NCBI RefSeq assembly: GCF_058153355.1
Contig: NZ_CM177019.1
Strand: one strand, 5' to 3'
DNA length: 64,000 nucleotides
Shown piece after piece: positions 54,019 to 54,840 of the stretch. Every line of letters starts with the position of its first letter. Within the stretch, counting starts at the first letter, position 1. Made by a program: the position numbers and the translations under genes. The notes under the pieces were generated by a model. The model was not told where the DNA came from, did not search any database, and worked only from the letters and a program-made list of their open reading frames with translations.

Positions 54019-54147
54019 ATGAACGAGGAACAAATCAAATGCGTTTTTGAGACCATATCAGCCCTTACCGATGAGGAGTCTCAGAAGGCAAGGGCTGTGG
54101 CTGAAAAAATAGCCTTAGCTTTGGGATTTTCGGTCAATCCTGGCTGA
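54019..54147 (+). CDS. 42-aa hypothetical small protein
   Basis: ATG 7 nt after Cro-like stop, SD GAGGAAG; MNEEQIKCVFETISALTDEESQKARAVAEKIALALGFSVNPG. Confidence 0.3.
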   Translation: MNEEQIKCVFETISALTDEESQKARAVAEKIALALGFSVNPG

Positions 54148-54361
54148 TGGAGTTATCCAGAACGGCGGCGATGTATTCACACATCTCCTGCCCTCGTTCC
54201 CTCTGCTGTGGCGGTTGGCTTTTCAGGATTTTAATTAACTCCATTCCGGACACCGCGAGCTTTGTTCGCTCATGAATGGGAAGGGATGACAGCAATAAAC
54301 CAACTAATGCCTCAAGGCCGTCGAGCTTGGTTTCAGTACTGAATTTACTTGTATCAGTCAT
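54134..54361 (-). CDS. 75-aa hypothetical protein on the opposite strand, convergent with the 42-aa ORF
   Basis: ATG with AAGGA SD 9 nt upstream; MTDTSKFSTETKLDGLEALVGLLLSSLPIHERTKLAVSGMELIKILK... Confidence 0.35.
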   Translation of the reverse strand: MTDTSKFSTETKLDGLEALVGLLLSSLPIHERTKLAVSGMELIKILKSQPPQQRERGQEMCEYIAAVLDNSISQD

Positions 54362-54840
54362 AGGTAATTTCCTTACTGGTTGTGTGAGAACTCCAGTATA
54401 CCACCGAGCCTGAAGTGGGAAAAAGACAGGCAAAGAGAGAGAGACACCCATGACTCCAGAAGAATTTATCTGCAAACACATAACGGAAAAGCTGGTGGCG
54501 GAGGGCTTCCCTGAAATTGTAGCCAGGGAGGGGGGCTTGCTGGGGCTGGATTACTACCGTCGCAGCTCACAGGCCAGTCGAAAAGGCGGGATTTTTGATG
54601 ATTGCTATTTTCGTGCGCGGCAATGGGCACTTGGTCAGACAACGGTTACTGAGCGAAAGGAAAAGCCGGGCCGGATTAAGGTGGGCCAGCCCGGCCTGTT
54701 CTGACTTGCGATCGGAACCAACTTTCAAGGAGCCGTTCCATGATGAACGCCCGACTAATCACTGATGTTGACCGCCAACCGGAGGGCATTAATCACCAGA
54801 CTGGGAAAGGTCTCAATCATCTGACTAAAGGGCATTAATC

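Follow-up and report, generated by a model that had tools for sequence, protein, structure and literature searches.

The window analysed here is a stretch of 64,000 nucleotides of DNA (NCBI RefSeq assembly GCF_058153355.1, contig NZ_CM177019.1), and the locus of interest lies to the right of a cI-like and a Cro-like gene. The cI-like repressor gene (53290..53676, minus strand; Pfam HTH_3, E = 1.6e-14, together with matches to PHROG repressor families) is followed by a strong hairpin terminator found in a terminator scan (53253-53285). On the plus strand, a Cro-like gene of the P22_Cro / YdaS type (53773..54012; Pfam P22_Cro, E = 2.1e-19; YdaS_toxin, 3.8e-9) opens the rightward (PR) early operon. 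Three small open reading frames follow. A 42-aa ORF on the plus strand (54019-54147) has its ATG 6 nt past the Cro-like stop codon, is preceded by GAGGAAG, and is placed for translational coupling to cro. A 75-aa ORF on the minus strand (54134-54361) starts at an internal ATG of a mechanically called 115-aa ORF, with a Shine-Dalgarno sequence (SD), AAGGAAA, 8 nt upstream of the start (54369..54375, minus strand), and its 3' end shares 14 nt with that of the 42-aa ORF. The third is an 84-aa ORF on the plus strand (54450-54704).

Direct reading of the DNA agrees with an earlier sequence-only reading as to the positions and strands of these three ORFs, the SDs of the 42-aa and 75-aa ORFs and the 3' overlap, and the NCBI pipeline annotates the identical three ORFs in a 91%-identical prophage of E. 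coli EC11. The surrounding 5 kb holds 64 ORFs of at least 30 aa, so that small ORFs by themselves are within chance expectation, and it is conservation that makes the 42-aa, 75-aa and 84-aa ORFs stand out. Conservation in related prophages had been proposed as a check on all three; the 75-aa and 84-aa ORFs are indeed conserved, and in the 42-aa ORF constraint at the peptide level is seen in the C-terminal 12 codons.

The 75-aa ORF is a protein-coding gene under purifying selection, with a dN/dS of 0.14 in its own frame, whereas the remaining five frames range from 0.25 to 2.5. Its homologues keep a length of 74-76 aa down to 32% identity (one gene call is 88 aa) and come from E. coli, Salmonella, Providencia and two further hosts. 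The proposal that a genuine minus-strand gene sits inside the rightward early operon is supported, at the sequence level, by the substitution pattern and the retained size. Wherever flanking genes can be seen (L003, L004, L008-L017, L019 and L024), the gene opposes an early operon and is convergent with a gene of the early strand; L018 is too short for its flanking genes to be seen and stands outside this count. The distant homologues lie on the PL side, at the position occupied by sieB in P22, lambda and Rac.

The encoded protein is predicted to form three helices (AlphaFold pLDDT 77) and has no credible match in Pfam or PHROG. A Foldseek search of the model against viral and PDB libraries gave a best E of only about 1, and PADLOC-DB returned zero matches for the 75-aa, 42-aa and 84-aa proteins, the partner proteins on the early strand, or rac10/rac11. 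The protein gives no match to PF14163, which the SieB proteins of P22 and Rac, used as controls, match at about 1e-29, and BLASTP to P22 SieB gives zero alignment. A profile search of 1.8 billion representatives recovered only five related proteins, and a scan for the family found four near-identical loci in viral contigs and one locus, in Providencia, in species-representative genomes. The candidate rac10 was rejected as a remote homologue, since BLASTP finds zero similarity. The sole mid-gene methionine of the 75-aa protein, M40, is leucine in five homologues; without a conserved internal methionine a P22-type translational switch cannot operate, and control would be on/off only.

Directly upstream of the 75-aa gene lies a conserved 75-nt cassette (54361-54435). 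Using positions 54355-54445 as a blastn query we found it in 981 of 5426 E. coli genomes, about 18% of complete E. coli genomes, and in 136 phage records. The matches include P22 and lambda, just upstream of sieB, Rac, at its sieB-position genes, and ymfI of e14, and in the P22 record the sieB promoter and RNA start are annotated downstream of the match, at a distance of 6 to 43 nt. These alignments show the cassette to be homologous, at the sequence level, to the sas/PsieB region. Of the 121 matches from a degenerate pattern scan of viral contigs, about 14 were real instances and most were due to chance.

The cassette also carries a putative promoter for the 75-aa gene. An extended -10 (TGGTATACT; 54395..54403, minus strand), conserved in short-type cassettes, predicts a transcription start near 54388. 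Most short-type cassettes retain GTGGTAT in the sense of the gene (A34 has GTGGTGT), and likewise TAT(N)CT preceded by TGG, which is absent at this place in P22 and lambda; the mapped sieB promoter of those two phages sits further downstream than the -10 predicted in the window. Twelve cassette instances were fetched with a pattern requiring CCAC..GGC..GTGGTAT, so within that subset the invariance of the TAT and of the helix P2 described below is partly built in. A simple sigma-70 -35/-10 scan did not call a promoter for the 75-aa gene because the -35 is only TTTTCC. The sequence-only reading took the minus-strand gene to imply antisense transcription across the early operon, and this is likely, because a conserved promoter-bearing cassette adjoins the gene upstream.

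Leftward transcription from this position could serve a purpose akin to that of lambda PRE: transcripts would cross the 75-aa gene, the 42-aa ORF and cro into cI, lowering Cro and raising repressor, and the 75-aa ORF would be secondary. The predicted promoter, on the same strand as cI, faces leftward about 380 nt past the cro stop. Leftward transcription right of cro opposing PR, as with lambda PRE and OOP RNA, is established lambdoid biology. Downstream of the 75-aa gene we found no convincing minus-strand intrinsic terminator between 54134 and 53677, the candidates being a hairpin lacking a U tract at 54059-54097, which is not conserved in L004, and a weak one inside cro. We nevertheless consider this explanation very unlikely. 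In most relatives the cassette and gene are on the PL side and directed away from the cI coding sense, so that the PRE-like geometry cannot be the conserved function, and strong purifying selection acts on the 75-aa ORF. There is zero sequence similarity to PRE or OOP, and a CII-type TTGC-N6-TTGC site is absent: the sequence is TTGCCTGTCTTTTT, which is missing the second TTGC and has a different spacing to the -10. Untranslated RNA downstream of a stop codon is a likely Rho target, and this would apply to antisense RNA extending past the 75-aa stop. Whereas OOP and PRE transcripts run leftward, the structured RNA here runs rightward and the leftward transcript is predicted to be protein-coding.

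That structured RNA corresponds to the plus strand of the cassette (54361-54435), downstream of cro in the PR operon, and is complementary to both the start and the SD of the 75-aa gene; its anti-SD stretch, UUUCCUU, is the complement of AAGGAAA. In P22, the antisense RNA sas shifts translation of sieB from SieB to Esc (Ranade and Poteete 1993, as recounted in PMC12197685, PMC7067206 and PMC13397905), and a 127-nt sas sequence has been published from RNA-seq (PMC13397905, Table 2). The P22 sas RNA (PMC13397905) contains ACCACCGAGCCUGACGUGGUUAAAAGACAGGCA, for which the window counterpart is ACCACCGAGCCTGAAGTGGGAAAAAGACAGGCA, and a 33-nt core in the window is near-identical to the sas 3' core. 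A covariance model, R1, scores 90 bits on the window, a value that is partly circular because the window copy is in the R1 seed. P22 and lambda, which are absent from the seed, score 59 bits (E = 2.6e-14) and 62 bits respectively, with E of about 1e-14, and the R1 match in P22 falls inside the published sas. By both sequence and secondary structure, then, the plus-strand element is a sas-type homologue.

These findings lend weight to the earlier suggestion that an RNA-level regulator is plausible here, since the plus-strand segment is homologous to the core of a known cis-antisense RNA, and they change what that regulator would be. The sequence-only reading drew its analogy with the DicF region of Qin. 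Searches with Rfam at gathering scores found no DicF anywhere in the window, and a search of 53200-55200 at E up to 10 found none either; 53200-55200 matches no other Rfam family, and there is no KilS homologue in the window; the P22 sas locus itself has no Rfam family. DicF of Qin and KilS of Rac resemble the present element in being small RNAs within lambdoid early operons, but KilS is a separate RNA, located 59 nt beyond the sas-like element in Rac. The closest equivalent of this locus is not the dicC-dicF region of Qin but the sieB/sas module, whose usual place in P22, lambda, Rac and e14 is the leftward PL operon. It had also been supposed that the minus-strand transcript would act as antisense to the Cro-side message; instead, the strand that bears the conserved structured RNA is the Cro-side one, and this RNA would target the minus-strand gene at its 5' end.

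The element comprises the anti-start and anti-SD stretch, a hairpin (P1) and two interleaved helices (P2 and P3). P1 (54374..54398, plus strand) consists of UACUGG, a 13-nt loop with the conserved sequence UUGUGUGAGAACU, and CCAGUA. Among 31 distinct sequences, 5 of the 6 pairs are changed on both sides, and the stems vary widely (ACUGG/CCAGU, CUUGG/CCAAG, GCUGG/CCAGC, CCUUUUA/UAAAAGG, CCUUC/GAAGG and UUCUCG/CGAGAA). The covariation score is 0.197 compared with 0.077 after shuffling, with none of 500 shuffles reaching 0.197 and slid controls at 0.051 or below. The covariation counts come from a model-fitted alignment and are biased towards the structure, although a plain MAFFT alignment points in the same direction. 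The P2/P3 module (54401..54431, plus strand), the part near-identical to the P22 3' core, pairs CCAC (54401-04) with GUGG (54415-18) to form P2 and GCCUG (54408-12) with CAGGC (54427-31) to form P3. The interleaving has the topology of an H-type pseudoknot with an A-rich third loop. We note that this is a topological reading, because nothing varies in the P2 core and P3 shows just one compensatory change, from U-A to C-G, in 4 sequences; a P2/P3 pseudoknot fold is what the pairing pattern would predict.

The same repeats could be explained at the DNA level alone. The cassette would then serve prophage-expressed cargo genes as a promoter preceded by an operator or activator site, its helices would be inverted-repeat sites for proteins, and no functional antisense RNA would be made in this prophage. 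P2 (CCAC-N10-GTGG) and P3 (GCCTG-N14-CAGGC) are inverted repeats with centres 10 bp apart, located immediately upstream of the predicted -35 and -10 or overlapping them, and the P22 module is upstream of the mapped sieB promoter. The invariance of P2 and near-invariance of P3 would suit protein sites, and covariation can be mimicked by concerted change of half-sites. On the other hand, the same stretch in P22 belongs to an RNA that has been detected and characterised (PMC13397905), and several wholly different P1 stem sequences are typical of RNA pairing and not of a protein site. G.U pairs are also unequally distributed between the two strands: on the sas strand, P1 has 14 of them against 4 A.C pairs, and P2 has 10 against 4. 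We regard the DNA-level explanation as unlikely.

Taken together, we favour the interpretation that the 75-aa gene is a sieB-type cargo gene expressed in the lysogen and placed under sas-type antisense control, unusually within the PR operon, and we give this a probability of about 0.6. A sieB-type cargo module would have landed in the rightward early operon, where the 75-aa gene would be expressed from its own cassette promoter while the early operons are repressed, as in a lysogen. On the early-operon strand the cassette would encode a structured RNA complementary to the start codon and SD of the gene. When PR fires, either upon induction or from an infecting phage copy, transcription would proceed through cro and the 42-aa ORF and then, in antisense, through the 75-aa gene and the element; the resulting RNA would pair with the 5' UTR, SD and AUG of the 75-aa mRNA and turn its translation off, with convergent transcription adding interference. 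The compact 3' module would make the antisense fragment stable while leaving transcription of the operon to continue. We infer the position of the promoter, the build-up of a discrete RNA, the repression of translation and any role in exclusion or defence.

The parallel with sieB/esc/sas of P22 is close in several respects. Both have a prophage-expressed gene (predicted here) that runs counter to an early operon, is convergent with an early gene and is preceded by a homologous cassette; they also share a plus-sense structured RNA with the same P1 hairpin and a near-identical core, ACCACCGAGCCUGA.GUGG..AAAAGACAGGCA. They differ in cargo, which in the window is an unrelated 75-aa helical protein and not SieB, and in operon, the P22 module being in PL and the window module in PR after cro. 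In P22 the overlap of sas with the mRNA is 5' of P1 and the switch requires the internal Esc start, whereas the window gene has no Esc-type start. The window cassette is of the short type: P1 lies directly against the SD and AUG, and the predicted promoter falls between P2 and P1. The corresponding gap in P22 is about 70 nt and contains the mapped promoter.

Similar arrangements are found with sieB of lambda and Rac, ymfI/ymfJ of e14, and rac10/rac11 of Rac-SA53. These have the same upstream cassette, and the cargo gene is antisense in an early operon with its 3' end abutting or overlapping an early-strand gene. They differ from the window module in lying on the PL side, where they are flanked by the repressor and by recombination, kil or integration genes, in having cargo unrelated to the 75-aa family, and in having partners that lack the A.KIALALGF tail described below. 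The module can also be compared with the morons of lambdoid phages, of which Juhala and colleagues reportedly gave an account in 2000. As with morons, an extra gene with its own promoter (predicted here) is positioned between conserved early genes, and the cargo varies at one position. As to a promoter active in the lysogen, the conserved extended -10 and the promoter and RNA start mapped in the homologous P22 region stand beside the negative result of the simple scan. Unlike morons, the window gene is antisense to its host operon, a terminator of its own was not found, and it has a predicted built-in antisense RNA on the opposite strand.

The 42-aa ORF constitutes the convergent partner of the 75-aa gene in the window. 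Taken whole, its dN/dS of 0.42 is indistinguishable from that of other frames, yet its residues 16-42 share homology with the C-termini of partner proteins of 98 to 168 aa that otherwise bear no relation to one another. The tail motif A.KIALALGF is present in 10 of 11 partner sequences examined, regardless of the N-terminus, and is kept in L004, L003, L016, L018, L019 and L024. The 12 most conserved tail codons (VAEKIALALGFS; 54097..54132, plus strand) are just outside the 14-nt overlap. Across seven diverged contexts they have a pN/pS of 0.37, the lowest of the six frames, and a pS of 0.63, which is near saturation, with recurrent synonymous swaps (TTA/CTG/TTG and GCC/GCT/GCA); no minus-strand ORF of at least 30 aa crosses 54097..54132. 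This substitution pattern indicates that the tail motif is selected as a peptide, and we interpret the 42-aa ORF, from the alignments, as the free-standing form of the conserved partner tail.

An alternative is that the 42-aa ORF is a leftover of mosaic exchange, the non-functional remnant of a partner gene carried with the module into PR, and that the 3' overlap has no regulatory meaning. The lack of frame-specific constraint over the whole ORF, the restriction of homology to its C-terminal 27 residues, and the occurrence of the free-standing 42-aa form solely in E. coli are all compatible with such a remnant. Against this are the retention of the tail as a peptide although synonymous change is saturated, the existence of free-standing partners of 50-55 aa with the motif in Providencia-type prophages, and an ORF that is uninterrupted in every E. 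coli relative (42-46 aa), with a coupled start throughout the four E. coli lineages. The remnant explanation appears improbable to us.

Under the antisense-control interpretation, the A.KIALALGF peptide, as a near-constant early-strand companion of the 75-aa gene, is presumably functionally coupled to it. As a crude test we modelled a Gly-Ser fusion of the 75-aa and 42-aa proteins from a paired 10-row alignment; the pLDDT fell to 53, and an interaction is unsupported by this model. A more speculative extension, which we regard as doubtful, is a linked pair of ideas. The sas/PsieB region would be a portable two-strand control unit, one strand bearing a promoter and the other specifying an antisense RNA capped by a pseudoknot, through which lambdoid phages express many unrelated cargo genes only in lysogeny and silence them in lytic growth. 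The 75-aa protein and the tail would in turn be an exclusion-antidote pair similar to SieB and Esc, the prophage-made 75-aa protein harming incoming phages and the early-expressed tail protecting the phage's own lytic cycle.

These observations suggest that sas, so far treated as a single P22 case, belongs to a family. The sas core and promoter are widespread and portable, preceding at least 14 small cargo ORFs, unrelated to one another, across different phages and here in a PR instead of a PL operon. The cassette flags genes that are likely to be prophage-expressed and are candidates for exclusion or defence functions. It also raises the design hypothesis that an antisense RNA forming part of a polycistronic early transcript may owe its stability to a compact 3' structure and not to a terminator, and the 75-aa protein and tail peptide are a new conserved pair that is directly testable.

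The early operon continues with the 84-aa ORF, which begins 19 nt past P3. It matches phrog_4439 (E = 1.7e-25) across residues 1-72 of 74 and is, by this match, an intact member of that family; most of its relatives are frameshifted at a G tract.

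The window comes from an E. coli chromosome and contains a lambdoid prophage as well as the MicL sRNA (40359–40666) and two tRNA clusters. The immunity region includes a cI-like repressor gene with its own terminator (53290–53676, minus strand) and a P22_Cro/YdaS-type gene (53773–54012, plus strand), and the locus studied here is the stretch of the rightward early operon, approximately 700 bases long, that follows the latter. Three small ORFs of 42 aa (54019–54147, plus), 75 aa (54134–54361, minus) and 84 aa (54450–54704, plus) lie where a sequence-only reading of this region had placed them, with ribosome-binding sites as it described; the first two overlap by 14 nt at their 3' ends. 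In E. coli EC11, which carries a prophage 91% identical to this one, NCBI's pipeline has annotated the same three ORFs. Small ORFs are common in this region (64 of at least 30 aa within 5 kb around the locus), and conservation is therefore the real test of the three.

Judged by codon-level constraint, the 75-aa minus-strand ORF is a real gene, as had been proposed. A comparison of six diverged DNA copies gives the annotated frame a dN/dS of 0.14, the lowest of the six frames (the others range from 0.25 to 2.5), and the differences fall mostly at third codon positions. The family is tiny: clustering at 90% identity yields seven groups, from E. coli and Salmonella, and five representatives are found among the 1.8 billion proteins searched. 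Its members keep a length of 74–76 aa even at 32% identity, with the single exception of one 88-aa gene call whose Providencia counterpart is 74 aa. Three helices are predicted for the protein (pLDDT 77), but comparisons with Pfam, PHROG and PADLOC gave no credible match, and fold searches gave no informative one. A kinship with SieB was considered and rejected, the comparison revealing no relation. In all contexts recovered, except L018, which is too short to include flanking genes, the gene runs antisense to an early operon, convergent with and usually overlapping a partner gene on the early strand. It follows the Cro/YdaS gene in the PR operon of E. coli relatives of this prophage, whereas the more distant homologues, including those in Salmonella and Providencia, are on the PL side, flanked by the repressor and by kil, recombination or integration genes, the same position that sieB occupies in lambda, P22 and Rac.

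The 42-aa ORF as a whole is without frame-specific constraint. Its last 27 residues, though, are homologous to the C-termini of partner genes elsewhere, which encode 50 to 168 aa with unrelated N-terminal parts, and the motif A.KIA(L/S/G)(A/S/G)LG(F/I/V/M) is present in 10 of the 11 partners compared, namely those of four E. coli lineages and of six among the seven more distant contexts; L017 is the unclear case. For the 12 codons just outside the overlap, the plus frame has a pN/pS of 0.37, lower than any of the other five frames, and synonymous sites are nearly saturated; no minus-strand ORF spans these codons. From this low plus-frame ratio and the lack of a spanning minus-strand ORF we conclude that the tail motif is selected as a peptide, and not as the 3' UTR of the opposite gene. 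Binding between the 75-aa protein and the 42-aa peptide received no support from a crude test in which the two were fused for AlphaFold. Also within this ORF, at 54045–54097, are two interleaved inverted repeats, TTTTGAGAC/GTCTCAGAA and CAGCCCTTACC/GGCAAGGGCTG; the minus-strand fold has z = -3.1, and close relatives preserve the longer stem, with wobble changes, but the L004 context does not, so that its significance is doubtful.

The key to the locus is a 75-nt cassette upstream of the 75-aa gene (54361–54435), which is more highly conserved than the gene itself and also precedes unrelated genes. By blastn, window 54355–54445 matched 136 phage records, including P22 and lambda just upstream of sieB, and 981 of 5426 complete E. 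coli genomes, the matches including Rac (at sieB-position genes) and e14 upstream of ymfI. In the curated P22 record the sieB promoter and mapped RNA start are directly downstream of the match. According to later papers, P22 sas is a characterised antisense RNA that is complementary to the sieB 5' end and causes Esc to be translated in place of SieB (Ranade and Poteete 1993, via PMC12197685, PMC7067206, PMC13397905). We placed its RNA-seq sequence (PMC13397905, Table 2) at 1485–1611 of the P22 record (L145), on the PL strand; it contains ACCACCGAGCCUGACGUGGUUAAAAGACAGGCA, and the window has ACCACCGAGCCTGAAGTGGGAAAAAGACAGGCA at 54401–54433 (plus strand). Sas-like cassettes head at least 14 unrelated cargo genes. 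Rfam has no family for the element, and we found no account of the cassette's breadth in the searchable literature, which represents Ranade and Poteete 1993 through later papers.

Read in the sas sense (plus strand), the element has three helices. P1 is a hairpin (54374–79 with 54393–98) with two-sided changes in five of six pairs; its stem differs among phages (ACUGG/CCAGU, CUUGG/CCAAG, GCUGG/CCAGC, CCUUUUA/UAAAAGG, CCUUC/GAAGG) and is UUCUCG/CGAGAA in P22 and lambda. P2 pairs CCAC (54401–04) with GUGG (54415–18) and has an invariant core, 12 instances having been retrieved by a pattern with CCAC, GGC and GTGGTAT fixed; P3 pairs GCCUG (54408–12) with CAGGC (54427–31) and shows one compensatory pair. 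P2 interleaves with P3 in the H-type topology of a putative pseudoknot, and the third loop is A-rich. A covariance model, seeded with 20 instances from which P22 and lambda were left out, picks up both phages (P22, 59 bits; lambda, 62 bits) and matches the window only once. In an alignment of 31 distinct sequences fitted to the model, covariation scores 0.197, compared with 0.077 for shuffles (0/500 reaching the observed value) and at most 0.051 for slid controls; a plain MAFFT alignment gives the same picture. On the sas strand G.U pairs are commoner than A.C pairs (14 against 4 in P1, 10 against 4 in P2), which identifies the early-operon strand as that of the functional RNA, as in P22. This reverses the direction of regulation assumed in the sequence-only reading, in which the minus-strand gene was the source of antisense transcription. 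Its suggestion of an RNA-level regulator is borne out in the form of a predicted sas-like element, but not the analogy to DicF: DicF, KilS and other Rfam families are all absent at the locus.

The locus is of an already known kind, the sieB/sas module of P22, relative to which the unrelated cargo family, PR-operon placement, short cassette form, conserved partner tail and breadth of the cassette are new. In P22 and lambda, P1 is about 70 nt from the sieB start codon, a distance that includes the mapped promoter, whereas the window-type cassette has P1 directly next to the SD and ATG, which forces the promoter to overlap the cassette. The gene strand carries, between P2 and P1, TGGTATACT, an extended -10 that is probably the promoter of the 75-aa gene; a predicted transcription start near 54388 with a 27-nt leader fits this assignment. 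GTGGTAT (gene sense) is kept in most short-type copies (GTGGTGT in A34) and is absent from P22 and lambda. A simple promoter scan did not call this extended -10, because the -35 is weak.

In a lysogen, with PR repressed, the cassette promoter would make 75-aa mRNA. Upon induction, or from an incoming phage copy, PR transcription would cross the gene in antisense and yield a sas-like RNA covering its SD and start codon. This would end translation of the 75-aa protein, with further interference from polymerases meeting head-on. An antisense RNA inside an operon cannot end at a terminator, since downstream early genes would be blocked, and a compact 3' structure that stops exonucleases would solve this problem. 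By analogy with P22, such stabilisation is plausible, and the 75-aa protein may act in exclusion or defence.

In e14 of E. coli K-12 (L147), a short-type sas-like cassette at 1498–1572 (89 bits) is followed by the uncharacterised genes ymfI and ymfJ, the same convergent, overlapping pair, which makes K-12 itself convenient for testing the cassette. In K-12 Rac (L007) a sas-like element (2906–3003) precedes the annotated sRNA KilS (3062–3137) by 59 nt in the PL direction; a leftward transcript would therefore carry two successive structured small-RNA elements between sieB and kilR.

The 84-aa ORF is an intact phrog_4439 member, most relatives of which are frameshifted at an internal G run. The length of this run (54527–54545) differs among related prophages: the window retains the phrog_4439 frame, EC11, L010 and L012 enter another frame after residue 26, so that their products, 70 to 106 aa long, end in unrelated tails, and L009 and L011 have truncated ORFs. 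Slippage, pseudogenisation or assembly error could each account for this. Within the 3' end of the ORF is a 12-bp GC-rich hairpin (54658–54702), followed on the minus strand by UUUUCCUUUC, a T run that is even longer in relatives; it resembles an intrinsic terminator (-31 kcal/mol, z = -2.8) and would halt leftward transcripts from the right before the cassette.

Left of cI, an 86-aa plus-strand ORF (52452–52712) is situated between two leftward early genes and overlaps them, with a geometry suggestive of a further antisense gene, this one in the PL operon. No sas-like cassette accompanies it: the only copy that the covariance model finds in the window is at the 75-aa gene. A second minus-strand module within the rightward operon (56076–56724) consists of an HTH protein gene with a small overlapping gene upstream; their counterparts in related E. 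coli prophages carry the annotations HTH-domain protein and RelE/ParE-family toxin (type II toxin-antitoxin). Further downstream in the same early operon, three tandem copies of the isrK and C4 antisense RNA pair (Rfam RF01394, RF01695) are located among Ash-family ORFs at 56836–58049.
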